NCBI GenBank assembly: GCA_964187785.1
Contig: OZ076409.1
Span: 3,102,001-3,166,000 of the forward strand
DNA length: 64,000 nt
Source: Amphiscolops sp. MND2022
Lineage: Eukaryota
Direction: 5' to 3'
Shown: positions 3,493 through 64,000 of the stretch, in pieces
Position numbering within the stretch: the first letter of the stretch is position 1
Layout: each line of letters begins with the position of its first letter
The notes under the pieces: generated by a model
The model's database searches: none
Told to the model about the DNA's origin: nothing
What the model saw: the letters and a program-made list of their open reading frames with translations, nothing else
Made by a program: the position numbers and the translations under genes

Positions 3493-3678
3493 CTGGATTA
3501 CGTAATTTGGTCCCTCTCCCAAGTCTTCGTCAGCAGGTACAGTGACACCTTGTGGGTTGTCTGCAAACGAGGTGACTTTGCACTTGGTGTCAGAAGTATG
3601 GACAGGGTCGGGCGAGATAAACAGACAAGTTATCAACAAAGTTATCACAAACGGATTCCCAAAAAGGTCATTCGCCAT
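3493..3678 (-). CDS. Probable first coding exon of a secreted/membrane host protein; remaining exons not identified
   Basis: ATG, then a hydrophobic signal-like stretch (PFVITLLITCLFIS), ending at a CAG|GTATTT donor in phase 0 (62 codons). Confidence 0.4.
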
Positions 3679-39400: not shown

Positions 39401-42200
39401 TTGGCGCGTGCAGTTACAGTGGCTTCAGAAGCGTAAACGATAGACAATTCACGTCGCAGAGTAGGATCACGATTTCCTTCTATAAAGCACTTCAGGATTT
39501 CATAACGTTTGGTAGTGATAGGCTCAAACCCTTCCAAGGCATCCAAATTTTGCATCCAGTCATCTTTCTCTAACTGGTAACGGGAAATGAAGGCCTGCCG
39601 CACTTGCATGCGGTTACCTCCAGTATTGAACCGGCTTGCCATTAATTCGAATACTTTCTCTGGCGTGTCACGTTCGGACTCTGCCTTGTTGATGATATAA
39701 TTCCGCTCCTCACCTTCCAGAAGACCAATGATATTCCAAGATTTGTCTTCAGGAGTTGCTTTGACTTCAGTGCGCTGCAAATACCGGCGCAATACCAATA
39801 TTCATCCATCGATAGAGCCTTCTTTAGACCAACGTTACATAGTGGGCCTGGCCTGCGTTGGATCACGACCAGCGAGAAGAGGAGCGATTTCCTTGGACAT
39901 CGCTCTAAATATTGCCGTGGTAAACCGCAATTGTTTAGGGGAGATGTCATTGCCATCCTCACTGCACGCAGGTGAACTGTCCCTGCTTCCCTTGGTGGCC
40001 TGAAGAGATAAGTCCCCCACCAAACGTTTTTTACGGGTGCAACTAGCATAATGGTTGCCCGCGGACATCCCCTCACCAACAGTTGTGTACAAAGAGCTCT
40101 CCTCAGTCACATGTGCACTGCACGAGCAGTGTCGAAGTTATCATCTTCCACACTATTGGCGTGAGATCTAGCGATAGCTTTGATGTCAGTGAAGTCTAAG
40201 GAAGATGAATTCAAGGTTATTGGATTCCCTCCCAAGTCCTGGGTACGTGTCACCAGAATTGTCTGCGAGGGCAGTAGCATGGCACGTGACGTGCTAGGTT
40301 TACATATAACTTGTATCCGCGCAAGTCTCTTGGTTACCTTTGGCGGTTTGGGGGCTTTGATTACAGTTTTAGCGCCCAGTTTCAGCGTCAGAGGACGACC
40401 AGTGGTAAGCGGGCATCACCTTAATATCAGTGTCTCTTCTAGCCGCCGCACTCATCGCATTGATCCGGTCTTGAGCTCGGTTACTTGTACCTCCATGCGC
40501 AACTCACGTTGAAGTAGTAACCATTTCATCTCATGCAACCGGTAACCCATAGCGTCCACTTTCGCAGACTGCACGGTTTGCTGTTGGTTAGTAGCACGCC
40601 TGCTGTCTTTCACGGAACACTGTACTGCCTCAATTTCGAGGGCGACTGCCCTGTGCTGTTCGCCGCACACCGCACGGGTTTCAGCTAGTCGTGGTAATTG
40701 TCGTTTTGCCACCGTCTCAGCCTCTAACACGGCTGTCCTTTCTGCCGCAGCCTCCTCCACGGCTCGATAAGCCGAAGATGGTCGTGAAGAAGCTACGGAG
40801 GTGGCACCGTCCCGAACCGAGGGCGCATTTTCATCTTGCACGCACAATTTTGGTGGTCGCAAGCGATACCTGGCATAATTCATACCACCAACGTAATAAG
40901 TCATACTTTCTAATATGGCATCAGTGTCGTTGCTGCCTGGACTACTGGCCTCATCGGGTGCTCTCGAGCACCCTTAAGCTTCTCTTTCAGCAGTTACATT
41001 AGGGTTGGGCCAGAAGTCTTCGGAGCTGGCACGAAGTGACAAAGTTAGTCTGCCGGCGTATCCTGAGTCCACTGCTAAGTACGAATTCACTCGTCATTGC
41101 TCCTCTTTCCTTTGCTGTTCGGTAGTCACCCGATCAGACATTGCACCTGAAAAACGGGAACCAGTCTTTAACGACTTCGGAGACCGCCGCTTCTGCAGAT
41201 TCAAGTTGCCATTGCTACCGGAACTTTCACGTTGCACCGAGCTCAATTAACATATTTCGTTAGCTTCTACCGCTTCCGGCGTCACAGATTCAGTCAATGT
41301 CGTGTTGCCATCAGAACGTTGATACAGTACTTGCCCATAACATTTTGCAGGCTTTACTGCGTGCCCAACACGTCAATCACATAAGTGACGACCACAAATG
41401 GTACTGACAAGCTCAAATCAGCGTCACGGGTGCCACTTCTAGCGCAGCACTTGATCAGCAAATCACCAATCCGTGCTCGCAGGCACGCTTGAAACCGTTT
41501 AGGACTATCGCTAAGACTGACAGAGACCTCAGATGGTTGGGAGTCGTTTCTGTGAGACCTTAAGACACAAACTTAATATACATGTCTCAAATGGATTGAA
41601 TTTACTTCTACGGGTCGTAGCGAACTCAAACTCACTCACGCAATCGTTACCAACCCACAAAATTGGAAAATTAACTTAATTCAAAGCCACACTTTTACTC
41701 AGACAAGCTCGAGACGTTTTTGACAACTTTTGAATTTTCTCGGATGGTATAAAAAACACATGTGGCTCGTATTTGCCACCAAATAGTCGGATCTGGCTCA
41801 AAAGTGACCAGGTACCCTGCGCCCTCGCAGGTACACTGAACTGAGCACCAATTTGGGCTACGAGGCTTGTACACCATTTCACCCAGACGGTACAGACCTA
41901 CGGTACCCCTATGTATCCGTAGGAGGCGAATTGCACTCTCATCATGCAATTCCCAAGTACCGTTATGAGCTAGTGGTCTGGTTTTTTTCAGCAACGATGC
42001 GTCAACCAGCACAAGGTACAACGGTGGGCTGCAAGTCGTCTCCACTTTTTGGCGGAGGTGTTCAAGTACTTCCAAAAAAATTCGCGAAATACGCCTTTTT
42101 GCACCTCTTTTTGTGCGGTCTGTTTTTGTCAATTTCTGAACAAATGCTGCACTAATTGGCACCAACTTTACTAGGCGGTGCTAGTGGGCACCCACACTGT
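36228..42200 (-). mobile_element. Decayed Ty3/Gypsy sequence: gag, protease, RT and integrase remnants with frameshifts and an internal deletion
   Basis: Gag-like 39337-40904; protease-like 38398-38805; RT 37455-37784 (WASGIVMV, DAYPLPRID, SIDLAWAFWQI); YIDD fused directly to the integrase tail (GLVEQTIQSLK..PFESHFGR). Right boundary approximate. Confidence 0.8.
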
Positions 42201-45200: not shown

Positions 45201-45253
45201 TTCAATTTTAATTTATTTGTTTTCTATGCAATTGTCTAACTTGCAAAACGCCA

Positions 45254-47551
45254 TGTCGAGCCCCACTGTGTGGGCCGGCTTTGAAGGACCTTTCGAAGTT
45301 GATGGCCGATTTTCACTGTCTGTCTTACTTATAACGGCCATCATTAAGTCCTTCAGTTGACTAAACTCATTTTGTAACTCGTTTATCTTTCTTTCATAAC
45401 TCTCTTTTATTTCAGACAACTGAGACGAGATGTCAGAAGTTTCGTTACTATCGGAGTCATTGGCAGATGACTGGGCCATGTCTGGATTAATTGGAATAGA
45501 TGTTTCAGACGAAGAACTAATAATTTTACCACTTCTGAGCTCAGTACCTTGTTCTGGATTCATATAGACGAGGGAAAAGGATTATGAGTGAAGACTGGAT
45601 TATCTGAAATGTTATTGCGATGTATTTTGCTGTTCTATTCGATTTGTAATCCCTAATTCACTAAATTTGATCAGAGATGTTTTAACGATGATTAGTATAA
45701 ATGAACAAGTCGTAAAGAAAGTAGCAGGAAATTAGTAAGGTGAATAGGAAAGTTCATCCAATGTTCATCGCAGTTGTAAGTGTGTCAAAAGAGATTACTC
45801 AGTTTTTCAGTATTATAGTTTCTGAAGATGAAAATGAGATGTCTTTTCAAGTAAAATTCGACGTGAGGTGTTCAACTGGATTGTAGCTTGTCGCAATTTC
45901 GGTCTGAGTAATCGCTAATGGCGGTCCAAAATACAGCAGTTCACGTGTCTTTTCATGCTGGTAAGACGCTAAATCTCTTACCAGCCGACTCTTATTGGCT
46001 ATTGCCAGTTGGTGCTAATTGGTAAGTCACGTGACCGGTGTTGTGAACTGCCGCAAGTTGGCCAAACCACATGGTACATCTACATATGCTAATTATGACT
46101 AATCATCACTTTACAATGTCGCAATTACCTGCACGCAGCATCTTGGTTTCTATAGCAACTCAAATCATTCAATAATGTACTAATTTCAAGTCAAACCAGA
46201 GTAAACTGTATCACAGGATGGGAAAACGATGTTTTCCAACTAATTCCAGCACTAAAATCAATACTTCAAAACTAAAGATGGAAATGCGATGAATTTGTCA
46301 GAGTATTTGCTGATTTTCAAGCCTAGTTTAGCTCTGGATGAAAATGCGATGAATGGTGGTCCTTTCGCTCGAAAATCAACACGATATAAACTGACGATGA
46401 TAAAAGGATGAACTCGTCTTCAAAATGAACGATTTCCAGCACAATTTAAATCGACGATGGTAAAAGGATGAACTCTCCTCGAAAATAACTAATTTCCAGC
46501 ACTAGTGAAATTGACGATGAATTCAGGATGAATTCGGTCGATAAAACAGGTGAAGCAGTTAATTCTACAGTAAAGACAAATGTACGATGAGCTTAGGATG
46601 AATACATTCAATAAAACAGCAAAATCAAATGTATCAAATTCCAATGATGAGTTTAGGATGAACTCGTGAATTAAAACAGCAACTATCGAAGCAATTCAAA
46701 CTAGCGATGAGTTTAGGATGAACTCATCCACTAAAATGGTAAATCTCAACACAAGATGAAATCATGATGAATTAATGATGGATTTGCTAAACAAATCAGA
46801 TAACCAGCGCAATCACTCTTTTTTAGGATGGGTTAAGGATGTACTTTCTCATTTCTCTTCTATGCTAGTATGACGATGAATAAAGGATGTCTTACTGTCC
46901 TTAAGAAATGAGAAGCACATTTGTGAGTTTCTACATGAAATATGACGATGAATTAGTGATGAGTTTTACTAAAATGAGTCCCGTAAAATCCGCTGATGGA
47001 TTTATGATGAAAGGTAAAGTTTATTGTCCCATGCGTGGTTCATTCGCAATCTCGGAGATGGGATTGCGATGAACTTAATTAACAGCACCAGTAAATCCGC
47101 TGATGGATTTAAATGAAATCAAATCAGTATCATCACTAAATTAGACGATGAATTTGTGATGTATCTTTGATGAGATTTGTCACAACTACAAACTCTGAGG
47201 CGGGGAGCTAGTAGAAGTTATAACTTTCATCGTTTCTATATCTCGCGGTCCAGTCTGACCAGAAAACTTCTCTCCCTTGTCGTGACAAACCAATATTTAA
47301 GAAAAGTAGCACGTCTAAGGCTAATGGCAAGATCATTTATGCGGACACCGGAACTAGAGCGCTCAGTATTAAGTAGATATATATAAATCACACTCAAAGG
47401 GGGGAAGGGATTAAGGTACAAGTAACGTAGGGTTGCTCACAACCATGGCTCTTATTATATGACTTCATATTGCCCATATCTAAGTACATAAGACATAATA
47501 TTTACATCACAGATATTTAGTAGATTATATTTCCATCATGCTGGCATGACA
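45254..47551 (-). repeat. 3' LTR (~2298 bp)
   Basis: Left edge fixed by comparison with the other copy (TGTCGAG). Right edge inferred from the TGTC...GACA terminal inverted repeat at 47548-47551; not confirmable within the window. Confidence 0.8.
46217..47172 (+). repeat. Phased array of GATG-N7-GATG motifs (~16 units, period mostly ~60 bp, variable spacers) in the LTR
   Basis: First GATG at 46217, 46277, 46337, 46396, 46456, 46516, 46586, 46646, 46706, 46766, 46827, 46875, 46947, 46995, 47057, 47147. Duplicated in the 5' LTR from 63254. Confidence 0.92.
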
Positions 47552-48686
47552 CTCCCGGGGGTGGGATTTGGACTGAGAGTGCAGGGGCCAAATGTGCAGA
47601 GGATGGTTGTCTCGGCGTTGGCTTCGACTGTTTCCTTCGTTTTGTTGGGGAGAAAATGGCCTTCGTTAGTTCTGAACTGGCATGTCCTTCGTTTGTTCTG
47701 TCCTGTGAGAGCTTCTCTGAGAAGAGGACCTTCGGTAATCGTCTTTTTCTGGCATCATTCTGGGTGATTTCGGTTAAAATTTTCGACGCGGCAACTCTAA
47801 TTCTTGGTCCATCGAATGTCCGCTGATCTGCATTTTATTGGTTGTCATGCTTTTGACGGGAGTTTCGGCTGGTTATTTTCGGTAGAAGCTGATTTCTCGG
47901 AGAAAAGTTTCCCTCCAAAACGCCTACGCTGAATAAACAATTCGATTAGCTTCATTGACAAATTGGCAGCGAGTCGGGGATGAATGAACGATGAATTGTT
48001 TGCTCAGCGAGACATCGATGCTGGTTTAGCGGAATGGCTGGCGCCATTGCTTTGTTTACTCGCGATGGAAAGGAGATGAATCGTCGTCATAGCAACTGTC
48101 AAAAGTTACTCCCGCTGCTCGACTTTTGAGTGAATGAGAAAGAGATGAATTCGTCGCCATAGCAACTGTTGCTCGATCTGATTGGCCGAGACTGAATTTA
48201 TGACTGAAGGAAATTACAACCGGTTGTCAGCAGCATTCTCATCCATAAATCATCCTCCATTCAAGTCGGTTTGAAAATCGCCACGATTTCCTTTGCGCGT
48301 TTCCGCTCAACTTCGTCGGCATTGATCTGAGACTGGCAGCTGTCAACAAATCAAATACTTGAAGTTTTTTGTCAAGTCCTTAGGAGGGGACGATTCATTT
48401 TCAGGGAAAGCTTGAGTTGGCTGTACTGGGAAGAAAAGTGATGTCAGTATTTGAAATCGGAGAGTTTTTCATCGATTTTTCATCTTCTGAATTCAAGTAT
48501 TTGATTAACATGGCATTCAAGCTGCGTCGCGCTCTTTGAAATCTTCTATTGAATTTGTTCTTTTGTAATCATGGTTGATCAGGCCATTTAATTACTGATC
48601 AAATTCTCTGTTCCTGGATTCTTCGATTTCTTTCCTTCTTTCACCTTCTTCCATTCTTTTCAGATTGTTTCTGCAATTTCTTCACG

Positions 48687-50141
48687 ATGTCGGATATCAA
48701 CTCCGTCTATTCGTTACCGGAGACCGAGGCCACAGAAAGTAAGTGCACTATTTTTCTCTTCTTCACAAACGGGTCGGGGAATAATTAGGAACTGAAGGCG
48801 TGTCTTGGTTTTAGCGGACTCCGTTCACTCTGTCGGCATCATTTCCGAGCTGACTACATTGCAGACAGTTCCGCCTCAAGAGGCTCCAATCCATGCAGCA
48901 TCTCACGCACCTCAGTATCAACCCGAGCAGCAAATTGAACAGGCCCCTAACGTCCCGTATCTTCCGCAGTGTAAGTACTATCCTTCCATTCTTCAGTTCA
49001 GTCTTCGAATCCCTCATATCTCATCCTTACTTCGTCCAGCGCGACTCCTTTTCGTACGGTGTTTCAGACCACTACCCTTGGTATGCCTCCCTCGGCAGCA
49101 TCACCTTCGGGTGGTATGACCGCCACATGCGGGACATGCTGCGGGACAGCATCCAGCAGTTCAGTGAGTTTGTCAATTTCCTTTTCACTCCTCTAGGCTA
49201 TCGTCCGAACACTCCGATGTGATTCCAATGTAAACATCTCATCTGCATGTAGTGTCCTTTGCAGCCGATTACCCATGTAATTCATTTTTAAGATGAATTT
49301 AGGATGTGTCATGAACATTCACAGCTCTTCATGGCTGACTCGCTGTAAATCCCATTTTTGAAGATGAGTTTTGGATGAATTCTTCTCCGGTCTTCTTTCT
49401 TCGCGCGGCGTACGCGCTCTTTCTTCTCCAATCGTCGTCGTCCAGTAACTGTTTCTTCTTTCAGGCCCCACACCGATCCACGCGCCAAGGCCTCGTCCAA
49501 TCAGCTACTCCGTCGGAGTAGGGACGAGTGATTTCGTCACAGCTAGTGCTGATGCTAGCACTCAAGGAGGGCCCCCTCCACTAGAGTTGTCCTCTTTCCT
49601 TCAGGACCTGTCACTAGGTGCAGTGAGTTCTCCTGTGATGAGGGCTTCCGCCTCCGTCCTCTCGCCGAACTTCCATCGGTACCTCGACGCTAGTGCCTCT
49701 CCCAGAAGTCCTCCTCCTCCACCTCGCGTCACAGTTGACACAGCTGCAAATGCCGTTGTTGATTGCATAGATGCAGCCGTTGATGCCTGTGTGGATACTG
49801 CGGACAAGGAGGTCCAAGCCGTTATTGAGACTGCTGATGGTTCCACTTGTTATGAACCCCAGGTGGAGACTTCCCTGTCTGCTTCTCCTCCTCCACCGAT
49901 TGCTGGTGTTCCAGGGGCAGTTGACGTTGACGTTGACCCGTCCGAAGTTCCCTCAGCTGGCACCACCGAGACCCAACTGGAAATCCCTGGCGATCTCTCA
50001 TTTCATAGTCCTTCATCTGGCGTGTCTGCTCCAGGAAGTATTGCGTCCAATGTGGCTACTGCCGACCTCGAGACGTCTCCAATGGGACCCAGCCTGTTGG
50101 ACTCCGATGACGAGCCCATTGCATCTCGTCTGCCAGGTTAA
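48687..50141 (+). CDS. Accessory gene A (antisense to gag-pol): ~326-aa Pro/Ser/Asp-rich, probably disordered protein; exons 48687-48738, 48815-48970, 49068-49163, 49465-50141
   Basis: Donors GTAAGT, GTAAGT, GTGAGT; acceptors TTTTAG, TTTCAG, TTTCAG; all phase 1. The 981 nt join into one open frame from MSDINSVYSLPE to ...IASRLPG*. Confidence 0.7.
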
Positions 50142-50724
50142 CTAAACAGCTTTAAACCGGTGAAGTATCTGATCAGTAGATTTTCATTCGTTTCCTTCTT
50201 CGTTTTTACTTTCGCTAGCATTTTTCACGTTTTTCTCTTTTCTATCCATTTTCCATCGTTTTTCTGTTTTCACTATATGGTTTTCTGCAGTTTTTCATTT
50301 TTCATCATTTTCTCATCGTCAAAAGTTTTGAACAATAGTTTTTTCGCTCTCTGGTCCTTTTTTAGAACTTTTCATCTCTTTTACATCTTTAAAATTTCTC
50401 GTTTCGGTTTTCGCTATCTTTCAGTGTTTTCTTTTCAGTTTACATCTCTTTTTCATCGTTAAGTTGTTTTTCGCTCTAAAATATCTCAAATTTGGTTCAA
50501 AGTCGTTCTATTCATCTCTTTTTCATCGTTCGAGGCTATCATTCTTTAAGGTTTCCATTTTTCATTCTGGTGGTCTGCAAACACATCTCTTTTTCATCTT
50601 TTCATTTTTTCTTCGTTTTTCGCTTGTATTTCCGATGAAAATATTGTTTTACATCATTTTTTCATCACTCGGGGTGAACTTTTTGATTTTTACGTTTTAC
50701 CTTTGCATTTTTCGGTTTTTGAGG

Positions 50725-53384
50725 ATGTTCATAAGATGTGGTATGTTGCTGTGTGCTTTTCGATGGTGTTTGATATGTATGCTGTTGTGTTAAAACAGGG
50801 CGGAAACGGATCGCTCGGAGCTGGTTCAATCACGTGTACTGTGGCTTAGCTATTGGATACGCGAAATATCATCAGTCCCGTGAATCTTATGTGAGGTGCT
50901 TGTTGTGCAAGCGGGACATAAAGGTTGCAAGTCGTGGCATCACGACTTTTATGGAACATTGTCGGGGCGTCCAACATCACCGCCTCGATTGTCTGGTTCG
51001 GCTTAGACGCGGGCTAGCATTGCGGGATCGTGACGGCAATCTGATGTCAGTGTCGGACAGTGTGGCTCAATCAGCTTTGTTGGAAGGAGTGAGTGTGCCT
51101 ATTGTTGAGCGTTGTCCAGATGTTACTCCAGCAGAAGTTTTCCAGATGGAACTCGCAGAGAAACCTGTCTGGGAAGATCTAGAACAGGACGAATCGGAAG
51201 GCCAGGAACGTACTGTGCGGCTGTTCCTGTGTCTGGTGATTGATGCTCTATACCGGGACTGTGACCTGCTAAGTGTATGTGGATTATGGGAGCTAATGGT
51301 GGCGACCGATGCGCAGCACTTGACCATGTTTGGACGGAGGTGTCGACTGGATGATATTGTGGTAACTATATTTCTATTTCATTAGTTGTAACTAGTGGCG
51401 AATGGGCGGCAAATATAAGATTGACTTGTGTGGTTTGCATATGTTCCTGAGTTTGCAGATTTGATTTTTGTACAGTATTACATTTGTGTTTTAGGGCGTG
51501 ATCATTTTGGGTTTGTGGCCCTTCGTCATGCGGCGTCTGATTGCTTTGTGGAGTGAGTCGACGTTCAGTAGCTTCTCCATTGGCATCGTGGCGGACAGGG
51601 TCGTTGGGCGCGTGAGCATGTGTAGTTCAGAAGGGGTCTCGCAGTATATCCTGTTTTCCTTTAGCTACACGCAGGATTGGGAGCCACGATTAGTTTCATG
51701 GATTGTGAACCTGCTTTGTGGTGCTCTGAGTGAGATCTGTCCCCTAGGCCTAAATTGTGAGCTGTTCCCGCAGTTATATCGTGTCTTGTGCTCAAGTGCC
51801 GGAATTGGGACGATTAGCTTAGTACCCGTTCGACTGGCTGACATCAATCGACTTATAGTGGCTGCGAGCGCGAGAGTTCTTGGGGGCACCGACGTGCATG
51901 TCATCCTTAATCACTTGCAGTCTAGACTGAAGCCCTATGTGAAAGATGACCTGTTGTTGTCCTGTCCCAAACTGTTGCGGGTGAGTATCATAGAGCTTTG
52001 TTTTATCGAAGTTTATGGTTGTAATGGACTCGCTATGTATTATGTTTTGTGGGGGGGGGGGTTGGTATCTTTCCGTTAATAAAACTGTTTTAACTTGTGA
52101 TTTGTTTTTATAGTCGGTCTTAGAAGGCGAGGTGTCTTTGTGGGACGTGCCTGACGTTCTCTCTGAATTGCGTGAGAAGTGGCCTTTCATTTGCGGTTTA
52201 CTGAGGACACCTGATGACGAGGGAGATGTTGATCCGCTAGACTATGTGCTCTGTGGTGATCCTGGCGTCGCGATGCGGCTTCATGTCTTGAGTCTTGTTC
52301 TCCGTGCTCGTGAGTATTCTTGTATTATTTATTTCGTGTGTTTGGTTCGGGCGGCTAAGTCAGTATTGTGTGCAGGGGGGTTGGATTGGTTTGCAAGTAG
52401 GGTGTGAAACGTGTGCACAATTCTTATTCGCTTTTTGTTGTTTCAGTAGTGACTGCGTACCAGTGGAGTTTCAGCGACAGTGCAATTCGCGGGTGTCACT
52501 GGGCATATGAGAGCGCATGTTTTGTACGAGCCCTGTTGGTCTATGTGGTGGACGAGTCGGTCTTACCTCCAGTGACAGATGTACGTGCTTTTCTGAGCTT
52601 GGTTGTGTCTGGATTGGAGTTGAGTGGACCCAAATTAGAGTGGTTGCGGGGGCGGTTTGCAGTACACTCCGACGACTATGCAAATCTAGCCCAGTTCGAA
52701 GAGGATTTAGTGCGAGTGCGGAATTTCTTGCTTGCGGTCGTTGACGAAGTGCTCAATGTGAAGGGACTGAAGGATGAGGTGACATTCCACCTCAGTATCT
52801 GTTGTCCGGTCATTCTAGCAGAGGCAGAGACAGAACTTGTGGTTCAGGAGGCAAGCCGTTTCACGGAGTTACTTCTGGACCTCAAGCGAATCACGTCAGC
52901 TGAGCGGAGACGGATGGATCGCGACATGCCGAACTTTGTGGCCAAGTATCGCAGTCTTGTGAGCCCTGAAGTATTAGCTACGGCTGGTACTGAGATCGAC
53001 CTGTTCCGGGCGTGTGCTAGTGAATCGTCAGTTCGCTTCCTTCGATTCCTATTATGCTTGTGTGAAAGTCCGCAGTTTCCGTTGGAAACGAAATGTGTGC
53101 AAGTGGGTCACATGTCTAGTGATGTGACCAGCAGTGTGTGCGCTACGGTCGTCAGTTACTTGAAGGCACATCGAATACGCTTGTACGAGAGTGTTGAAGG
53201 GCCGCTATTGGATGAAGTCTCAGAAGCAGTTGGGCGTATCACGGATCTGTCAGATTTCACGGAGGAGCTCCTATGGGATGACATTGGCATCGTCGCGAAT
53301 GAAGATTACCGGCGTCATATCTATGAACAGTTAGGATATGAAGTGGATGGAGAGCGAGCAATGAGCCCAGAGATCGGCAATTAA
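50725..53384 (+). CDS. Accessory gene B (antisense to gag-pol): ~732-aa protein with N-terminal C2H2/BED-like zinc finger; exons 50725-50740, 50799-51361, 51495-51980, 52114-52309, 52447-53384
   Basis: Donors GTATGT, GTAACT, GTGAGT, GTGAGT with matching AG acceptors; phases 1,0,0,1. The 2199-nt open frame links four separately called ORFs. Motif CLLCKRDIKVASRGITTFMEHCRGVQHH. The first micro-exon is the least certain part. Confidence 0.8.
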
Positions 53385-56001
53385 CTTTGAATGTTGCAAA
53401 CTCAGTTGATTTAGATTTTGTATTATTTGTATTATTGTTTTTGTAGTATTAGTTCTTTAATGGATTACCAACATTGGGTACGGCCTCTGGATAGAGAGGG
53501 GAGAGAGAGAGAAAATTCTGCTACGTCGGAAAGATCGGTAGTAGTGTATTTACAACAATAGTTATTTTGGTGCCCAATATCTGTTTTTCTTTTGAGTTGT
53601 TAGTGATAGTTACAGAGGATATTAAGTACGTGTAAATCAACAAGTTCGTCCAACAGTTCACTTGAAGCATTGTCATCGGTATTTTTGTATCCTAGATCAT
53701 CGGTCGCGCATCGCTTTTTTGGTGTTCATCGTTATTACATCTCGTGGGAGTGTAAGTAATTCGTCAGCGTTTGATTTTTGATTTCTCATCTCATTTTCAT
53801 CACGTTTTCCTCGGTCGACCGTGCGACGTCGTGGAACCTGATTTTGTCATCGTTTTTACATCTTTCGGTGCGTCAGAAACATTGCATGTTGTTACATGTG
53901 GTTTTTCTACATATTTCATCATTTTTTCATCTTGCGTTTTGATTTCAGCACTTTCGTGCGTTATTTGCTATAGTTCATCGTTTTTGCATCGCCAGTTTGT
54001 CTTGTCCAGTTTTTGCTCATTTTGCTGTATAGTTCATCTTCTTTTCATCGTGCGTTTGAAATGTACGAATTTTGCGTGTTTTCGATGTTATTTGGCTATA
54101 ACGTAAGCAGGGGTTGCATTTTTCATGTCTGGGGGAAATTTTTATTAATATTGCGGTGTTTCGGAGTGTTTTCTTCATGTATTTTAGCGTTATACGGTTA
54201 TAACCGTTTGTCGTGTTTTTGAATTTGCATGAATTTTATGGTACATGTGTTTTGATCATCGTCGTCATGTTTCTAGTTTGTCAACTACGGAACGTCATTG
54301 CATGTATTTTTAGTTCGAATTCTGGTGACCGCCGCTTGCGTGGCAGTCGAAAATAATTTCACTCAGCAGTGGTACTGATAGCCTGTAGGCGTGCAAGGTA
54401 CTAGTGGCTTCAGTCCAAGGCTGGGTGAGTGGAGCTGCTCCGCTCCTTTCAGATGAATGGAATCTCGTAGTTTTGGGCTATATATAGTCTATATGTCATT
54501 TTTGCGGTTGGTTGTTTGCCATTATTCGTCGAAATGGGTTTGTCCATTTGACGGTCAGTCCGCTCAATTAATATGATTGACAACTACGGTTATGCATGTG
54601 TCCAGTTTTAGACTATCTGTTTCTTGTATTTGCATGTATGGATTGTTACATGATGTGTTCCTTTAAATGGGTTGCCCCATTATTGACATGTCGTTATATG
54701 TTCGGTGTTAGTTTCATGTGTTTTGATTTGATATTTTTATTTTCGTTCATTTGGACAGGGCTTTGTCGTCACAAAGCCCCTACAAAACTAACTGAGAATC
54801 CACTAGCCGCTGGATAACCAACGCAGCAAGCTTCATCCGAATATGGTTGTGAGCTCCCCGCCTCAACTAACCAGCACTCTTTTCAGAGAAATGCCAGCCA
54901 GCACGAAGGAATGTTTTGAGCTTTTCGATAGGGGTGTTTTGTATGTTATGAGCTGATGTTTACTGGGGGGTGCTCACTCCTTTGTTAGTTTTGTAGGTGT
55001 TTCGTCAGTTCTTATATTTTGCATGTAAGTTAGTAGGCTTCATGTATTTTCGATTGTTTGTTTCATTTTTATTCGTCTAGGTTTGGAATGCTTTGGTGTG
55101 AATTGCATATATTATCTCATTCATTTTTGAACGGTACATGTATATTTCGGTGCGTTGCTCATTTGTATTGCATGTAGTTTGGAATTGTTAATTTCTTTCG
55201 TGACGTCATTGATTTGGCAGGTCTTTGAACTTTACATGTATTGATCATTTCATTTTTGTGTCGCATAATTCTGTTTGCATGATTCGAAATAAAGTCGGTT
55301 GTTTTTTATCGTTTCGTGGAGTTACATGTTGTTTGAGAATTGGCTGATTTATTGTGATGTTATGTTGATGGTGTTTCCCATCACAAGGAGGTTTTGGTAA
55401 GTCATTTAATATTTTCGAATTTCCATTTAGACTAAATTCATCGTTTTGACATCCTCCAGCGAAGCTAGAGTATTGTGTAAGGTTAACGATAAATTCGGTC
55501 ACGATTTGATGGTAGTGCCCATCACAAATTCATCTCGTTAATTGATTTCATGTAATTTATGAATAATTGGATCTAGTTCATCACTATTTCATCCTCTAGC
55601 CGAGCTAGAGTCTTATGATAGCATGAACGTGAGTGCGTTCGCATTCTGATGGTATTTTCCATCTCGAATGCATCGCTAGTAAATATTGCATGTTGATTGG
55701 TCGAATTTTTGGCTGAGTTCATCACTTTTTCATCTCTCGTGTGTCTGAGCTAAATTTTCAAGTGGTTTTATCCTTTTTTCATTTCGAATTTTTGTGTGTT
55801 ATTTTTTCCTGGTTTTTTGGTCGTTTTTCATCCGCTTTACATCGTGCTTTGTTTTTATACGTTTTTCATGTGATTTTTAGTAACTTTTCATCCATTTTAC
55901 ATCTTCATGTGTTTTTTAAGTTAAAATTGCATGTAATTCGTTCGCTTTTGTGATCTGTTCATCCGTAACACATCTCAAATTTAAAATGAGAGTTTTCTTG
56001 G

Positions 56002-59000
56002 CTAAATCGTTACGTCTATTTTGTTGGTCTTTCTCAGTGCGTTTCTAGCTGAAGTAATCTCATGAATGAGGAAGTCTGGATACTTTTTCGGTGTAGGGTT
56101 CTCACGTAACCTGTACCTACTTTGATTTGATCTAGACGGTCTAGAACTCATCCTTTCTTCATCTTCATTTTGCGTGTTTGTCTGTTGTGACTGATTTTCG
56201 TGTTGTTCGTCTCTCAGAGGTACTCTTATCCTACTCTCATCGCGGGGAGGCGGTAGAATAATTTCTTCTCGCGTTCCAAATCTAACTGTAGGTGGTCTAA
56301 AGTTGTTGTGGTCAGTTTCTACTTGCTGATAGTCTATTCTCGTGGTTATTTCTGGTGGAATTACTTGTGGAGTGTGTTGTTCTTGTACCCGCGGAATTAT
56401 TTCTTCTGAAGGCTCTTCTTCGACTAAGTCTTGATCTAGATTGTCATTCTCATTCTGATCTACCTCGTCGGTCGTCGGAATATTCGAGTCGAAAATGTCC
56501 GTGTCTTCAACCCTTTCGGTGTCTGGGTAGAGATGTTTGGACACGTTGATGTCGTCAATCGGAAATTCCGGTTTGAACAATCTCAGTCGCATGCGATGTA
56601 CGCACTGAGTTTGGTGTGTGCCTACTTTGCGGATGATGTAGTTGCTATCGGATAGCACTTTAATCACCTTGTACGGTCCTTTCCAATGGAAAGTTTTAAA
56701 CTCTTCTTTGCTTCTCTGAGAGTCGTACTTAGGATCTAGTAGGAACACAAATTCATTCACCTTCAGTGGCTGTGCTCGTGCTTTTCTATCATAGTACGTT
56801 TTGTACTTGTGATAGGCGGAAATGATGTTATCTAGATTGTCTCTGAAGATAAAATTCATTTTGTCTAGAATTTCGTTCACGTCCTTACACTTTGTTTCAG
56901 CCGGTTTGTTTGCGTTTCGGAATTGCAGATCTAGTGAGTTGTATGGTGTTCTTCCGTGGAAAGTTTCAGTTGGTGAACATTTCAGTGAATCATGATACGT
57001 TGTGTTATGGGCCATGATTGCTATGTCGACATAGCGGTCCCATTGTGGTCTGTCTGCGTTTACACTAATTTTAAGGATCTTTTTCAGTTTCGCGTGCGTT
57101 CTCTCCACCATGCCTATTGTCTGCGCGTGCTTTATCGTGGCATGGGAGATGTGAATATCAGCCGCTTTCGCGATTTCAGACAGAAGTTCAGCCGTGAACG
57201 CCGTGCCCTTGTCCGTCAGAATGTGTTTGGGCACATACGCGTGTTTTGTGAAGATCGACAGTAATCCTCTGACTACGGAATGTGTATCAGGTCTCTTCAG
57301 CGGAACGGCGAACAGGTAGCGCGAGAAAACGTCAACAGCCGTCAGAATGTGTGTAAAACCGTTCGATGCCGGGAGTGGACCAACGATGTCTATTTCCAAC
57401 AGGTCTTCTGGTCCGTCGCACGGGTCGTAGATTTTTTGTAACGGTGGACGTAGTTGCGTTTCTTTTACACTTTTAGACTTCATGCAGTTTTCACATCCGT
57501 CAAGGACTTTTTGAACTTTACAGGCTAAGTTGGGAGAGTAATATCTTTTACGAAGTTCATACAACATTTTCTTTAAACCAGGGTGTCCTTGTACCGGGCT
57601 GTTATGTAGAGTCCTAATTATTTTCAAAATACAGTCTTCAGGAACGACTAACTGCTTGTGAGACTCTAGTCCCGTGTGATCAAAAAACTGTCTGTACAAG
57701 ACACCGTTTACAACTTGTAGGCGTTTTCGATTTTTGTACAACTTTTGAAAAAACTGGTCTTGCATATTAACTGGGTGTTGCAAAATTTCAGTACCTTCTA
57801 AAAATCTAATCATTTTTTGGATAACCCAGTTATTTTTCTGGACTTGAATTAGATCGATCCCCTCGGCGGGGCTAACCTGACTCCTTACCGGGTGTGATAA
57901 TGATACTTTACGGATGAATTGCGAGAGTTGAATTGGCTCGTCCACGTCTGTGAGGCGGTACGTCAGATGGTTGTCAGTCGCGAAGTCATCTGAGGCCGCT
58001 GTTCTCTCACAGTTGGTGAACTTCATCCCTTTCCCATCGTCATGAGCCACGTCAGTGCCAGTTGCCAATTTCATCTCTTTGACATCCTTCTGGCGTTTGC
58101 ATCTGAGTGGTTCGCTCGCGGGAAAGTAATCAGGCTCGTCTTCCTCCTGTTTTGGTGTACGGGAGGCGATGTCGATCTCGATTCTGTGAATTGGAATAGT
58201 ATCAGTCAATTTTAAATGTACACGGTCTTCAGGTCTAATCTCAAGCCGAGATAAGTAATCCGCTGCGGGATTTTCAACTCCTGGAACATGTGCTAATAGA
58301 AAATTGAACTGAAGGGTTTGATCGCAAAAATTCCAAAGTGATGGCGGGATATGCTTCGCCTGGAAAAATCTAGTCAAGGCCTTATTGTCAGTCATAACAA
58401 TGATGGGTTTTTTCGCACCCCACAAAATGTGGCCAAATTCATCGAAGGCAAAGTGCATAGCTAAAAACTCTTTGGCATACATTGTTAGAGACATCTGGCC
58501 GCCCTGAATTTTCTTAGAGCCAAATGCAACAGGGGCGTATGTATGTTTGACTGACGGGTCTGCATAATCCTCGATTAACAACACATAGCCGGCAGCGTGT
58601 TCGCTGGCGTCACACATGATTACCAATTGTTTATCTGGTAATGGCAATTTCAGAGACACTTTTGTTGCTTTTAACAAACTTTCATTAATTTCAAAAATAG
58701 CATCTTTATGTTGTTGGTTCAGCTTGAAAGGGACGTCTTTCTTGATGAGTTCTTGTAAACAACAAGTTTTATCAGCTAGACGGGGAATATAAGACCTGTA
58801 AAAGTTTACAAAACCAAGATAACGTTGCAACGCTTTCACTGAATTAGGGGGTTTCAACTTGGTTAAATAGTCTGTTACGCGTTTTTCGATGGGAGCAATA
58901 CCAGTGCTAGAAATGGTTTTTCCCAAGTACTCAATTTGTTTTTGTCCAAATTCACATTTACTCATGCTAAGTTTAAGACCAGCTTTGTGCAATTGTTGAA

Positions 59001-61095
59001 AAACAAGTTCAAGGTTAGTAATCAATTCTTCGGGTGAGTGTGCTGCAATTCCAATATCGTCAACATATTGGGCACAGCGGTCCGCTTTGACCAAGGGGTC
59101 CAAATACTCACGGATTACTCCTGTGAATGCTGACAAAGAACGATTAAGACCTTGTGCTAGACGTAAAAATGCAAAAGTTCTAGACCCAAAATTAAACGAT
59201 AACAGTTGGACAGATTGCTCATCGGCCATTGGAATGCAATGGTAGGCCTGGGAACAATCAAGTTTGCAGAAGTACTTTTTCCCGGCCATGTGTTGGGCAG
59301 CGTCAGCAATTGTTGTTACGGGATGATTGTGCTCACCGTAATCGTTTTTGATCAGGTGGTTTATTCTTCTCAAGTCAACTAAAATCCTCAATTTACCATT
59401 AGGTTTACGCTGAGCAAATATCGGGGAAGAGTATTTGCTGTGAGGCAAAGTAGTTATAATCCCGTACTCTTGCATTAGAGCTAACTCCACGAGCAAATCG
59501 TCCTTCAAATTTGTCGGAGTCGGGAGACTTTGTGAATAAACAGGTTCTTCATGTTGAGGTGTTAACTTAACTTTAAAATCAGTGTTCATGCCAATATCAA
59601 AACGATGTCTAGCAAAAATGGAGTTGTACTTTACCAGCAACTCCTTTACCTGTAACCGTTGAGACGGAGTAAGAAGCGAGTCGTCCCAGTTGAAGTTCTT
59701 CAGGAAGTTCATCCGTTGTTCATCGGATTGGGACGGGTCAAGCTTCTCGAGCTCTCGCAGTGCCAGAATCTCATCATAAATCCGTCGCTCAATTGCGTTG
59801 AGTTTGTCTGGCTCACTGCACGTCTCGGGAGTTGGGTACCACTTGGTTGACTTCATTTCAGGGTTCACGAACAGTTGGTTGATCACTGCTTCGGCTTCAT
59901 CTGGGTACTTGGTGATCAAGTTCAAGTGTTCCACTGGCATGGGCGTGATGTTTGCCGCCTGGTGTGGTGTCGGGATGCGAAAGTGTGCCAGAGTGGTATT
60001 GGCTTCAAGTGTGTACGTGTGGTTGTTTGGGTTGGTGACCTGGATTGTCGTCTTGCCCTCGTCTAGGTCAACCAAAGCTGGAGAAACAAGCAAACACGTC
60101 TTTCGCATGAATCCAGGTGAGCCCTCAACTGTACCAGTTGTAAGTGAGATGTCCTCGTCACTGTGGACCTGTATCATCACTTGATGGAGAGGAGGGATCA
60201 CTGTTCTAGTACTGGAACACAAATCAATTAAACCAGTTTTGAATCTGTTGTTCTTTTGCTGTCTAACTTGCATGGACATCATGTGATTAGGGAAGTGGAC
60301 AAGGTGGTTTTTGATGTCTAAGTTGACTGAGTACTTTTCAAAAAAGGACATTCCAATTAAAATTGTTCCCATTGTTGGAAGGATTAGGAACGTTTCTTCA
60401 AATACTTTTCCAGCAACGCAAAATCTAAGTAAGACTTGCTTACGCACTGGGACTAAGTTCCCGTTTGCTATTTGAATTTTGAAATTCGGAGGGGGGAATT
60501 CTTGAAGGATGGCTTCTGGATGAGCCGTTGTTATTTTTCGCAATTCGGCTCCAGACATTGCACTTTGTATTGCGCCTGTGTCTAAAAGTGCGCTGTTTTC
60601 GTATTTGTCAAACTGAAGAGGGACGTAAAGCATTTTATCTTTTTTGTTTAAATGTAAAGTGGGACTGAGAACGTGAATTTCTGTTTTAGTTGCATGTTTT
60701 TTAGCTTTTGAAGCGTTAATACTACTCTGTTTTGCATGTTTTTTAATACTAAGCCGTTTGTCGATTGTTGAGTGTGAAGTCGAGTCGTCGTCTAGATGGT
60801 GGGTTTCCATCTCTTTGGCATCTTCCACCTGCCTCATGGTGTTTGGTTGCCAGTTCATCGTTTGTTCATCGTTGATTTCAGCGAGTGAAGAAAAGCGGCT
60901 GCCGTTGAGTTGACGTGCATTTCTCATCGCTTTTTCATCGTTGGAAAGTCTTCGCTGATAGACGTCGTCAGCTTTTGGTCGTTTGTCCAGTGAAGGCTGC
61001 CATTTCTTCATTGGACGGTTGTGAGTCTGTTGTTGAGTCGTCAGTCGTTTGTCGCGCGTGTCGTTGGTAGCGGACGGAAATCGTGGCGGAATCAA
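56002..61095 (-). CDS. pol: Pol polyprotein (protease, RT, RNase H, integrase), probably expressed as Gag-Pol by -1 frameshift
   Basis: 1697-codon ORF: LLDTGA (PR), YVDD (RT), CDAS/TDNKAL (RNase H), H-x6-H..CENC zinc motif, DIVGP/TDKG/ERTH catalytic triad, WKGPY (GPY/F motif). Confidence 0.97.
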   Translation of the reverse strand: MIPPRFPSATNDTRDKRLTTQQQTHNRPMKKWQPSLDKRPKADDVYQRRLSNDEKAMRNARQLNGSRFSSLAEINDEQTMNWQPNTMRQVEDAKEMETHHLDDDSTSHSTIDKRLSIKKHAKQSSINASKAKKHATKTEIHVLSPTLHLNKKDKMLYVPLQFDKYENSALLDTGAIQSAMSGAELRKITTAHPEAILQEFPPPNFKIQIANGNLVPVRKQVLLRFCVAGKVFEETFLILPTMGTILIGMSFFEKYSVNLDIKNHLVHFPNHMMSMQVRQQKNNRFKTGLIDLCSSTRTVIPPLHQVMIQVHSDEDISLTTGTVEGSPGFMRKTCLLVSPALVDLDEGKTTIQVTNPNNHTYTLEANTTLAHFRIPTPHQAANITPMPVEHLNLITKYPDEAEAVINQLFVNPEMKSTKWYPTPETCSEPDKLNAIERRIYDEILALRELEKLDPSQSDEQRMNFLKNFNWDDSLLTPSQRLQVKELLVKYNSIFARHRFDIGMNTDFKVKLTPQHEEPVYSQSLPTPTNLKDDLLVELALMQEYGIITTLPHSKYSSPIFAQRKPNGKLRILVDLRRINHLIKNDYGEHNHPVTTIADAAQHMAGKKYFCKLDCSQAYHCIPMADEQSVQLLSFNFGSRTFAFLRLAQGLNRSLSAFTGVIREYLDPLVKADRCAQYVDDIGIAAHSPEELITNLELVFQQLHKAGLKLSMSKCEFGQKQIEYLGKTISSTGIAPIEKRVTDYLTKLKPPNSVKALQRYLGFVNFYRSYIPRLADKTCCLQELIKKDVPFKLNQQHKDAIFEINESLLKATKVSLKLPLPDKQLVIMCDASEHAAGYVLLIEDYADPSVKHTYAPVAFGSKKIQGGQMSLTMYAKEFLAMHFAFDEFGHILWGAKKPIIVMTDNKALTRFFQAKHIPPSLWNFCDQTLQFNFLLAHVPGVENPAADYLSRLEIRPEDRVHLKLTDTIPIHRIEIDIASRTPKQEEDEPDYFPASEPLRCKRQKDVKEMKLATGTDVAHDDGKGMKFTNCERTAASDDFATDNHLTYRLTDVDEPIQLSQFIRKVSLSHPVRSQVSPAEGIDLIQVQKNNWVIQKMIRFLEGTEILQHPVNMQDQFFQKLYKNRKRLQVVNGVLYRQFFDHTGLESHKQLVVPEDCILKIIRTLHNSPVQGHPGLKKMLYELRKRYYSPNLACKVQKVLDGCENCMKSKSVKETQLRPPLQKIYDPCDGPEDLLEIDIVGPLPASNGFTHILTAVDVFSRYLFAVPLKRPDTHSVVRGLLSIFTKHAYVPKHILTDKGTAFTAELLSEIAKAADIHISHATIKHAQTIGMVERTHAKLKKILKISVNADRPQWDRYVDIAIMAHNTTYHDSLKCSPTETFHGRTPYNSLDLQFRNANKPAETKCKDVNEILDKMNFIFRDNLDNIISAYHKYKTYYDRKARAQPLKVNEFVFLLDPKYDSQRSKEEFKTFHWKGPYKVIKVLSDSNYIIRKVGTHQTQCVHRMRLRLFKPEFPIDDINVSKHLYPDTERVEDTDIFDSNIPTTDEVDQNENDNLDQDLVEEEPSEEIIPRVQEQHTPQVIPPEITTRIDYQQVETDHNNFRPPTVRFGTREEIILPPPRDESRIRVPLRDEQHENQSQQTNTQNEDEERMSSRPSRSNQSRYRLRENPTPKKYPDFLIHEITSARNALRKTNKIDVTI

Positions 61096-62600
61096 AAACC
61101 CTGATTTATGTCTTCATCAGAGTAGCTTTCTTGGTCTTCTTCTTCGGCAACTGCTTGCATAGGGTTCATCGGCTTTTGTTGTCGTTTTAAATCTTGTCTT
61201 CTAGTTTTGTTGTCATCTTGTGAATTCGTTGCGTATGGAATCTTTCCATATGCAGAACTGCTTTCTTTAGGGACGCGTCGTCTGCAACCCCTTGCTGAGT
61301 GGCCTGTGTAACCGCAAATCTGGCAGACCAATTTTGGATTGTATTTCGGCTTATCTGGATCGGCTGCTTTCTTCATTGGGATTGCATCCTCCTTCTTTAT
61401 GCCGTTCGCTTCGTCTCGTTGTCGGGCGCGACATTCCGTTTTGCGGTGTCCTGTCTTTCCGCAGTAGAAACATTGTCCCTCAAATCGTTTTCGTTCTGTC
61501 GGTTGCGTGGTCGTCGTTGTTGTTGTGGGCTTCGTCGTTGTAATCGTAGGTGGTGCTGAGGAGGTGACCGCGTTAAATGGTTGGATTGCCGTAGGTGGCG
61601 CGACGTACTGCTGGTACTGGTATTTTCGCATTAGGTAGGTTTTGATTTCCTCTGGGGAGCTCTCTTCTTTGTTTGCCATAGTGAGCTCTTGTTGAATCTC
61701 GACTGGCAGTTTTCCAAACAAGAACATTTTGATTATTCTGTCGGCCTCATTGCCGAAGGCTTGTTTGGCAGTCTTCTTGAGATTTTTGAGGAAATCTCCG
61801 AATGTTTCTGTTGTGGGATCATAGCGTGCTTGGTCCCATTTGTAACGGGCCACTTCCTTTAGATCCTCTTTTGCAAATTCTTTTCTGAAGAGGTCGAGTA
61901 CATCCTTTAGTGTTGTCATTGGCGTTATCTGGATGGATTGCCAGTATTCTATTGCGTCATCTCTCAAAAGGCTTTGAAAGAAGTGTAGTTTGTTCTCCTC
62001 GGTGATTTTGTTGGCAAGCGGGCTAAGGTGGTTGAGGAGAAGGTGCTCAAATTCGACGAATTTGTCTTTTTGGCCTCTGAAATTTGGCACGTGTGTCTGC
62101 AGAAGCTTCGTGTTGGTGGTTGTGTTTTTGATCCGTTGGGGGATCGTCTCGATTGCATAGAGTAGTCGTTCCTCATTGCTTCTGGGGGTTGATTCTCCCT
62201 CTTCGTCTGAATCGTCTTCTTGGTAACTTCTGAAGTTGGTGAAGCTGGTTGTCGGGCGGGTGGAGCGGGTTTCTGTAGCTCCTGTCACCATGTCGAGCCC
62301 CACTGTGTGGGCCGGCTTTGAAGGACCTTTCGAAGTTGATGGCCGATTTTCACTGTCTGTCTTACTTATAACGGCCATCATTAAGTCCTTCAGTTGACTA
62401 AACTCATTTTGTAACTCGTTTATCTTTCTTTCATAACTCTCTTTTATTTCAGACAACTGAGACGAGATGTCAGAAGTTTCGTTACTATCGGAGTCATTGG
62501 CAGATGACTGGGCCATGTCTGGATTAATTGGAATAGATGTTTCAGACGAAGAACTAATAATTTTACCACTTCTGAGCTCAGTACCTTGTTCTGGATTCAT
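61092..62600 (-). CDS. gag: Gag (502 aa) with two CCHC zinc knuckles; starts inside the 5' LTR
   Basis: CFYCGKTGHRKTEC and CQICGYTGHSARGC; capsid-like central region; N-terminal coiled-coil; directly upstream of pol. Confidence 0.93.
   Translation of the reverse strand: MNPEQGTELRSGKIISSSSETSIPINPDMAQSSANDSDSNETSDISSQLSEIKESYERKINELQNEFSQLKDLMMAVISKTDSENRPSTSKGPSKPAHTVGLDMVTGATETRSTRPTTSFTNFRSYQEDDSDEEGESTPRSNEERLLYAIETIPQRIKNTTTNTKLLQTHVPNFRGQKDKFVEFEHLLLNHLSPLANKITEENKLHFFQSLLRDDAIEYWQSIQITPMTTLKDVLDLFRKEFAKEDLKEVARYKWDQARYDPTTETFGDFLKNLKKTAKQAFGNEADRIIKMFLFGKLPVEIQQELTMANKEESSPEEIKTYLMRKYQYQQYVAPPTAIQPFNAVTSSAPPTITTTKPTTTTTTTQPTERKRFEGQCFYCGKTGHRKTECRARQRDEANGIKKEDAIPMKKAADPDKPKYNPKLVCQICGYTGHSARGCRRRVPKESSSAYGKIPYATNSQDDNKTRRQDLKRQQKPMNPMQAVAEEEDQESYSDEDINQGF
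61095..61101 (-). other. -1 ribosomal frameshift slippery heptamer G GGU UUU
   Basis: Gag ends CAG GGT TTT TGA. The -1 frame reads GGG TTT TTG ATT CCG into pol and is closed by TGA TGA four codons upstream. Confidence 0.8.
62279..62290 (-). other. Primer binding site TGGTGACAGGAG
   Basis: Begins with TGG immediately after the terminal CA of the 5' LTR. Primer tRNA not determined. Confidence 0.75.
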
Positions 62601-64000
62601 ATAGACGAGGGAAAAGGATTATGAGTGAAGACTGGATTATCTGAAATGTTATTGCGATGTATTTTGCTGTTCTATTCGATTTGTAATCCCTAATTCACTA
62701 AATTTGAACAGAGATGTTTTAACGATGATTAGTATAAATGAACAAGTCGTAAAGAAAGTAGCAGGAAATTAGTAAGGTGAATAGGAAAGTTCATCCAATG
62801 TTCATCGCAGTTGTAAGTGTGTCAAAAGAGATTACTCAGTTTTTCAGTATTATAGTTTCTGAAGATGAAAATGAGATGTCTTTTCAAGTAAAATTCGACG
62901 TGAGGTGTTCAACTGGATTGTAGCTTGTCGCAATTTCGGTCTGAGTAATCGCTAATGGCGGTCCAAAATACAGCAGTTCACGTGTCTTTTCAGGCTGGTA
63001 AGACGCTAAATCTCTTACCAGCCGACTCTTATTGGCTATTGCCAGTTGGTGCTAATTGGTAAGTCACGTGACCGGTGTTGTGAACTGCCGCAAGTTGGCC
63101 AAACCACATGGTACATCTACATATGCTAATTATGACTAATCATCACTTTACAATGTCGCAATTACCTGCACGCAGCATCATGGTTTCTATAGCAACTCAA
63201 ATCATTCAATAATGTACTAATTTCAAGTCAAACCAGAGTAAACTGTATCACAGGATGGGAAAACGATGTTTTCCAACTAATTCCAGCACTAAAATCAATA
63301 CTTCAAAACTAAAGATGGAAATGCGATGAATTTGTCAGAGTATTTGCTGATTTTCAAGCCTAGTTTAGCTCTGGATGAAAATGCGATGAATGGTGGTCTT
63401 TTCGCTCGAAAATCAACACGATATAAACTGACGATGATAAAAGGATGAACTCGTCTTCAAAATGAACGATTTCCAGCACAATTTAAATCGACGATGGTAA
63501 AAGGATGAACTCTCCTCGAAAATAACTAATTTCCAGCACTAGTGAAATTGACGATGAATTCAGGATGAATTCGGTCGATAAAACAGGTGAAGCAGTTAAT
63601 TCTACAGTAAAGACAAATGTACGATGAGCTTAGGATGAATACATTCAATAAAACAGCAAAATCAAATGTATCAAATTCCAATGATGAGTTTAGGATGAAC
63701 TCGTGAATTAAAACAGCAACTATCGAAGCAATTCAAACTAGCGATGAGTTTAGGATGAACTCATCCACTAAAATGGTAAATCTCAACACAAGATGAAATC
63801 ATGATGAATTAATGATGGATTTGCTAAACAAATCAGATAACCAGCGCAATCACTCTTTTTTAGGATGGGTTAAGGATGTACTTTCTCATTTCTCTTCTAT
63901 GCTAGTATGACGATGAATAAAGGATGTCTTACTGTCCTTAAGAAATGAGAAGCACATTTGTGAGTTTCTACATGAAATATGACGATGAATTAGTGATGAG
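62291..64000 (-). repeat. 5' LTR (partial; truncated by the window end)
   Basis: Near-identical to 45254-46963. Confidence 0.95.

Follow-up and report, generated by a model that had tools for sequence, protein, structure and literature searches.

The pol gene of a young Ty3/gypsy LTR retrotransposon in Amphiscolops sp. MND2022 contains eight copies of a short spaced motif, GATG-N7-GATG. These DNA words are maintained through the choice of codons in lineages that are actively copying, and the same motif is massed in the LTRs, the spacers, and a predicted intron of the element. The presence of a DNA code inside pol is well supported. The best explanation, to which we assign a probability of about 0.55, is that the pol sites likely dock a BED-like finger protein encoded by the element's own antisense cargo gene, which would activate or protect the integrated copies of its family; activation or protection from silencing is the least certain part of this explanation. 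The cargo protein as the binder, its binding, and its function are proposed here from sequence comparisons.

The element and the layout of its motif

The analyzed window comprises 64,000 nucleotides of contig OZ076409.1, and the element extends from position 45254 to 589 bp beyond the window end (19,336 bp in total). It is bordered by a 5-bp target-site duplication, CGCCA (45249..45253), the second copy of which is located just outside the other element end, beyond the window. The 3′ LTR (45254..47552, minus strand) is 2299 bp long, has TGTCA...GACA termini, contains 21 motif sites, and is 99.7% identical to the 5′ LTR (62291..64000, continuing 589 bp outside the window, minus strand), which carries an array with 60-bp spacing. 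A primer-binding-site-like sequence, TGGTGACAGGAG (62279..62290, minus strand), adjoins the 5′ LTR and is common to six sister elements. The gag ORF (61092..62618, minus strand) encodes a zinc knuckle and has its first methionine codon at 62600, within the LTR, and the pol ORF (56002..61113, minus strand; 1703 codons) encodes protease, reverse transcriptase (RT), RNase H (RH), and integrase (IN). The element is a Ty3/gypsy LTR retrotransposon, with paired TG...CA LTRs, the 5-bp duplication, the primer-binding-site-like sequence, gag, and the PR-RT-RH-IN domain order, in which the protease match is below the cut-off (E 0.036) and the RT, RH, and IN matches are above it. These features are typical of the group, whereas the 2.3-kb LTR holding the gag start, an accessory region of ~8 kb, and the motif lattice are atypical. 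All 40 scored matches to the element (out of 3729 candidates) show at least 99% identity and the LTR pairs of five further copies are 99.6–99.9% identical; therefore, the family is large and young.

Several structural details accompany this architecture. Since gag starts inside the LTR (62291-62618), the 3′ LTR holds a second copy of ~100 of its codons, as is also found in the sister families. Between the LTR array and gag there is a near-perfect palindrome around CACGTG (AGTCACGTGACC; 63064-63075 and 46027-46038), a possible host E-box, and a similar CACGTG palindrome occurs in a sister LTR. One copy (C6) has LTRs ~82% identical compared with 95% identity of the interior, and two others (C4 and C11; L015:6738-9435 and L018:6766-9445) have a pol 99% identical and a cargo allele with a protein identity of only 46–58%, its exon layout and motif being unchanged; modules thus appear to have been swapped between copies by recombination. 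Loci L020-L022 (C10), L062-L064 (C7), L094-L095 (C11), and L098-L099 (C7) show either tandem duplication of the LTR and cargo 5′ region or cargo and arrays without pol in the fetched 20 kb, and such copies are possible non-autonomous derivatives. Just beyond an element end, locus L013 contains a MITE-like fold-back repeat of 408 bp (~3140-3550), 92% self-complementary. To the left of the element, positions 36722-42180 of the window hold pieces of other retroelement-like ORFs (a YIDD motif, gag-like), and positions 20608-21528 a 306-codon ORF, probably a host gene, which we take to resemble a glycosyltransferase family 2/GalNAc-transferase exon.

GATG-N7-GATG occurs 77 times in the window compared with 1.79 expected sites (the largest of 100 shuffles gave six), and 75 of these sites lie within the element (45676 to 63998), the 45 kb of flanking host DNA containing two. 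Spacer 7 alone is enriched in the element, every other spacer from 0 to 29 giving at most five sites. It is a family-specific short motif, massed in the element and rare in the 45-kb flank and in related families. The full-length copy carries 79 sites: 21 per LTR, seven in the predicted intron, 22 in the spacers, and eight in pol, with none in the internal gag and cargo exons of the window's copy. Six sites on both strands separate the 3′ LTR from the P/S-rich cargo exon (47979..49377), a seven-site array with ~70-bp spacing occupies the predicted cargo intron (50303..50738), and two non-coding arrays with 16 sites separate the cargo and pol ends (53698..55974). The densest arrays, those of the LTR upstream of gag and the intergenic ones, reach 6–10 sites per kb versus 1.6 in pol.

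A sequence-only reading of this window had proposed that selection coats the whole element with sites wherever the protein tolerates it. The distribution argues against this view: among the 21 fetched element regions pol carries 1.4 sites per kb and gag 0.24 per kb, no site occurs in 10.9 kb of the P/S-rich cargo exon, which is fast-evolving, the window's copy has a site-free stretch of 2974 bp, and the sites form clusters with intervals up to 2–3 kb. Even coating of the element is ruled out by this cluster-and-gap layout and the nearly bare gag and cargo exons, in which sites with one mismatch show no excess. One gag site (intact in five other copies) and one cargo-exon site (intact in six) are imperfect in the window's young copy, and single sites are therefore dispensable.

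The half-sites recur with a period of 11 bp, the spacer between them is A-rich, and sites occur on both strands. Array spacings cluster near 48, 60, 70, and 81 bp, with a phase coherence of 0.78 at 10.5 bp (35 non-independent gaps), and the pol site pairs are spaced 48, 48, and 69 bp; together, these features point to a protein on duplex DNA. The non-coding sites have flanks that resemble one another little (median best identity 0.46), the LTR showing no more than a weak 60-bp repeat. The observed/expected CpG ratio is 0.98 in the element and 0.91 in the flank, and because CpG is not depleted, a VANC-type loss of DNA methylation is an unlikely output; DNA demethylation is probably not what the motif serves, and a ratio near 1 hints that there is little CpG methylation available for removal.

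Codon choice at the pol sites

The seven pol sites and peptides listed in the sequence-only reading are all correct and lie in frame 0 of the pol ORF. On the minus strand, DEKAM (aa 59; 60925..60939), DEQTM (aa 82; 60856..60870), and DAKEM (aa 98; 60808..60822) are found in the pre-protease region, DEQRM (aa 464; 59710..59724) at the start of an ordered, conserved helix before RT, DVKEM (aa 1010; 58072..58086) and, 48 bp from it, DGKGM (aa 1026; 58024..58038) in the predicted disordered RNase H-integrase linker, and DEERM (aa 1651; 56149..56163) in the C-terminal tail. An eighth site, absent from that reading, has GATG on the non-coding strand and encodes HPEAI inside the protease (aa 198; 60508..60522, plus strand). 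Thus seven of the eight sites are on the sense strand, although both strands are equally easy to encode, and the sense sites are all in frame 0 because the other frames would need Cys or Trp. Pol has eight DxxxM peptides, of which seven coincide with motif sites; the exception, DIAIM in the integrase, is unable to encode the motif.

The sites had also been described as confined to linkers, which is wrong. Six of the eight fall in variable windows comprising 31% of the residues (binomial p=0.014, with the sites clustered), and both RNase H-integrase sites are in a disordered stretch of the predicted Pol model (residues 140-1170, mean pLDDT 76.7). The remaining two are in folded parts, HPEAI within the folded protease and DEQRM heading the conserved helix, both with a pLDDT of ~90 in the predicted model. 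A second family (family B), ~75% identical in DNA to the window's family (family A), likewise departs from a linker-only rule, its pol sites including DGKTM, at a beta-turn, and one within the highly conserved FARHRLDI block. At the DEQRM position, 117 homologues conserve E in 60% and R in 91%, compared with D in 8% and M in 2%; the conserved E and R supply motif bases and D and M fill free positions, the motif being threaded round two conserved residues of a folded helix. Peptides of the form D-[VADEG]-x-x-M reach 4.1 per 1000 aa here versus 0.35 in the 117 homologues (a baseline leaving out P0001, P0006, and P0009), and this ~12-fold enrichment is a clear instance of protein sequence being shaped by a signal in DNA. 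The predicted Pol model also contains an all-beta domain between the protease and RT (aa ~295-380), and the related Pol proteins P0023 and P0046 carry PF00692, which we take to be dUTPase; the domain may be a decayed relative of it.

The proposal that the pol sites are selected at the DNA level is borne out. With the protein fixed, 3000 synonymous shuffles gave a mean of 0.71 and a maximum of four sites, compared with the eight observed. All seven eligible peptides use GAT, which accounts for 37% of Asp codons, together with a G-ending fourth codon (15–35%), a joint probability of 2e-8. The test of synonymous-site conservation suggested in the same reading, made here between copies, gave a concordant result: variants present in two or more copies occur at one of 28 sense-site wobble positions versus 872 of 3301 other third positions (p=0.002, an approximate value as the copies are related). 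Motif bases carry singletons about as often as other positions do (0.154 vs 0.170 per column). Shared variants being rare and singletons normal, decay is therefore free once a copy has inserted, and the sites are kept only in lineages that spread. These family-A statistics comprise 17 of 18 copies, the diverged old_C10, which keeps five of the eight sites, being left out, and three of the 11 near-identical loci L002-L012 were aligned.

Each pol site is intact in 14–17 of 17 family-A and 16–19 of 19 family-B pol copies. The residues between D and M vary (T/P/S/L/A/K) and the wobble G is constant. At five sites with orthologues in both family A and family B, the two wobble bases are retained, compared with 18 of 35 GAT and 91 of 209 G-ending codons kept overall. 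As a check on ascertainment, pol sites beyond those of the reference were counted: none was found in 18 family-A copies and two, each in a single copy, in 19 family-B copies. Relatives lacking the GATG arrays do not retain the peptides with free codons, since the pol ORFs of all six sister elements (56–61% identity, three shortened by stops) have no sites and lack the peptides, the position of DEQRM reading DDQRR, DKQRK, EEQRH, or AESRA. The flanks of all eight pol sites are no more like array units than shuffles are (P 0.09–0.78), so the sites arose in place, by point change, and insertion of array fragments into pol is ruled out on the same grounds; in conserved domains, the alignment with motif-free relatives runs codon by codon through the sites.

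Related families and the antisense finger gene

In the stretch separating pol from the 3′ LTR, the element carries an antisense, predicted spliced cargo gene on the plus strand. Its predicted exons are a P/S-rich ORF, fast-evolving and free of motif sites (49449..50136), an exon with a BED-like zinc finger, C-x2-C-x18-H-x5-H (50799..51362, with an approximate end; finger at ~50897-50983), an exon with AG/GT ends conserved across families (51495..51980), a short exon, 57% identical over 67 aa between alleles, with approximate boundaries (52113..52308, trial coordinates without AG/GT), and a last exon (52447..53383). The finger is predicted to form two strands and a helix around C-x2-C...H-x5-H. 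The zf-BED match is below the Pfam cut-off in the six of 17 members that show it (best E 0.017), and Atlas neighbours carrying zf-BED, zf-C2H2_12, and FAM200-ZBED5 lie at 0.90–0.91. Searches of PDB sequences and profiles, Pfam, Atlas (last exon), and longer homologues gave no family above the cut-off for the cargo, and a fold search with the finger-exon model (mean pLDDT 59) gave no match with Z of at least 5. A profile search of representatives yielded 170 proteins, mostly short, with a hAT family in none of the 12 scanned against Pfam, and no significant match was found to an RNase H-like core or a C-terminal dimerization domain. Cargo alignments A4 and A5 presumably resemble hAT blocks. The sub-threshold BED match and the Atlas neighbours make hAT origin a candidate ancestry for the cargo.

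Every related family examined at the DNA level, a survey that leaves out the P0004/P0005 family, has an antisense BED-like finger gene and a clade-specific spaced motif, which is also present in pol, sometimes at the same positions. In the sister clade, all six elements have a homologue of the finger exon, and the word is AYGA-N13-WCGT, a pattern defined post hoc from the data, which outside pol peaks at spacer 13 in all six (5–11 sites versus 0–5 at other spacers). It occurs in the RNase H loop of all 16 sister pol copies, with the Thr codon always ACG, codon identity between distant sister subfamilies being only 44–53%, and at the pre-RT helix equivalent to DEQRM in nine of the 16. The excess in pol over synonymous shuffles gave P values of 0.002–0.046 in four of the six sister elements and 0.13 and 0.40 in the other two, and a matrix trained on non-pol sister sites gave P≤0.005 in three of four source elements. 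Two outgroup families (~42% identity) have cargo homologues and the dyads GGCC-N5-CGGC and CGGA-N6-ACGG, with a pol excess of P 0.003–0.010 in three of four copies and 0.11 in one, where matches of the position weight matrix (PWM) for outgroup O11 count overlapping windows twice. Overall, the pol excess is weak in three of the 10 elements tested (P 0.13, 0.40, and 0.11).

The sister motif was not found in family-B pol. In family B, the direct repeat is accompanied by an inverted pair whose members are 9 bp apart, with both strands represented in the pairs, an arrangement that links the two motif geometries. In the family of P0045 (L114-L119), nearly all of the 29 matches have at least one in-frame stop in pol, in many of them a single TAG, which may reflect either read-through or shared decay.

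The finger segment preceding the first zinc-binding His reads SRGI(T/S)T in the GATG families (an old diverged copy differs), in which the exon is only 43–85% identical, GRGL(QN/QT/HN/SS) in the sister clade, and KGVVE/KGAFE or GSGEF in the outgroups. The predicted recognition segment changes along with the motif, an agreement that reflects shared descent among about six related families and hence is not an independent test. In Hermes, the residues of the BED finger that read bases belong to its loop and the beginning of its helix (PMC10368747), and we map them onto the cargo finger tentatively, by position.

The candidate reader, its possible roles, and known systems

Taken with the clade-specific motifs, the finger segments make the cargo finger the probable reader of GATG-N7-GATG. 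We propose that the cargo protein would bind two half-sites one helical turn apart, possibly as an oligomer in the manner of hAT transposases on subterminal repeats, and that it would be recruited by the arrays at the LTR and gene borders. The pol outposts would extend it over intron-free coding DNA, with gaps shorter than 2 kb across gag-pol, and the bound protein would likely keep copies of its own family open for transcription. Placement of sites in codons would follow from the lack of introns in gag-pol, leaving codons as the sole route over 6.6 kb; the cargo gene, unlike gag-pol, can hold an array in a predicted intron. If this is correct, the element recognizes and likely switches on its own copies through an antisense-encoded finger protein. 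By analogy, the best reading is a VANC-like self-recognition system.

A wider and more tentative proposal, which we consider possible, if somewhat less likely than not, concerns the clade as a whole: an animal LTR-retrotransposon clade with a self-addressing code, in which a captured and disarmed DNA transposase would serve as the reader, each family would have its own spaced word, and that word would be rewritten in pol codons at the same few positions (the pre-RT helix end, the RNase H loop, and linkers) as finger specificity shifts, altering Pol and providing sequence-specific anti-silencing in a genome without CpG depletion. According to a 2019 review, in the part drawn on here, the anti-silencing mechanisms encoded by transposons number only three, all of them from plants, and piRNA and KRAB-ZFP systems are the target of none (PMC6719617). 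The clade is a directly testable animal candidate for such a mechanism: one genome holds several of its families, every one having a motif of its own and a predicted finger, which allows finger-by-motif matching.

The same binder could have another job, coating the cDNA or pre-integration complex (end bridging, compaction, nuclear entry, target tethering) or damping copy number, which we regard as unlikely. Such a role would agree with selection visible in spreading lineages only, with clusters recurring every 2–3 kb or less over the whole element, and with the binding of subterminal repeats by hAT transposases in transposition (PMC10368747), but a uniform coat fits poorly with the 3-kb gap over the cargo exons, and the densest arrays occupy intergenic DNA and the LTR upstream of gag, places where regulators of transcription would be expected. 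We consider it improbable that the motif is read by a host DNA-binding protein and has no connection with the cargo gene. DNA-level selection fits any binder and the tie between cargo and motif is by sequence, but the motif varies by clade within one genome, together with the cargo finger, and is nearly absent from the flanking host DNA. Quite improbable, too, is an RNA word, GAUG-N7-GAUG, acting as a packaging, export, or splicing tag: such a tag would suit the placement of the internal arrays and of seven of the eight pol sites on the strand of the genomic RNA, but the LTR arrays point the other way, family-B pairs mix strands, hairpin formation is impossible for a direct repeat, and a period of 11 bp with helically phased spacing points to duplex DNA. 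Very improbable are a protein-level signal in DxxxM (e.g., a cleavage or interaction motif), which the enrichment of the peptide would suit and which is largely refuted by the fixed synonymous positions and the other peptides produced by opposite-strand sites (HPEAI, HRLDI, and one out of frame), and neutral fragments copied from the arrays, given the flanks of the eight sites and the codon-for-codon alignment of those in conserved domains with motif-free relatives.

Docking of the cargo protein on its own family's copies, our preferred reading, finds its closest parallel in the VANDAL/VANC systems of Arabidopsis Mutator-like elements, which likewise combine an accessory gene with a family-specific motif massed in introns, intergenic, and terminal regions (PMC5735166; PMC6719617). 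In the parts of these accounts considered here, VANC21 localizes to non-coding regions, tandem duplication expands the VANDAL motifs (PMC5735166), and the motif is absent from the coding probes that were assayed (PMC5735166; PMC6719617), whereas here coding pol carries sites that arose in place. The carrier is an LTR retrotransposon rather than a Mutator-like element, the motif is a spaced pair, the finger is BED-like, CpG is not depleted, and the cargo matches no curated Pfam family in place of VANC; the element is therefore likened to VANC-type systems and is not a member of them. Hermes, a hAT transposon, has BED domains that read 4-bp sites cooperatively and prefer AT-rich flanks (PMC10368747), and its subterminal repeats share with the present sites paired 4-bp half-sites, an AT-rich context, many copies, and a BED-like zinc finger (PMC10368747). 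Unlike in Hermes, the sites are found throughout a 19-kb retroelement, including coding DNA, and there are no terminal inverted repeats of a DNA transposon.

In a search of the literature, from which most subscription papers, Repbase Reports, and supplements were outside the scope, no description of this arrangement was found. The plant Retand (Tat) Ty3/gypsy elements are similar in having a long region from pol to the 3′ LTR, an antisense gene predicted to bind DNA, and family-specific arrays (PMC11963269). The protein differs, and the gene here is predicted to be spliced; the published account of Retand, in the part drawn on, gives the function of its TRP28 protein as unknown and describes no shared short motif and no pol sites (PMC11963269), and Pfam scans of the cargo and element ORFs gave no TRP28 (PF04195) match. 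Foamy virus Tas, whose DNA-binding sites lie in the LTR and at a promoter inside env, offers a further parallel as a retroelement-encoded DNA-binding activator (a candidate role here) with targets in both LTR and coding DNA (PMC7390438). The likeness is one of layout: Tas targets, as described in that source in part, are few and have little shared sequence (PMC7390438), whereas here one word recurs 79 times and the gene is antisense.
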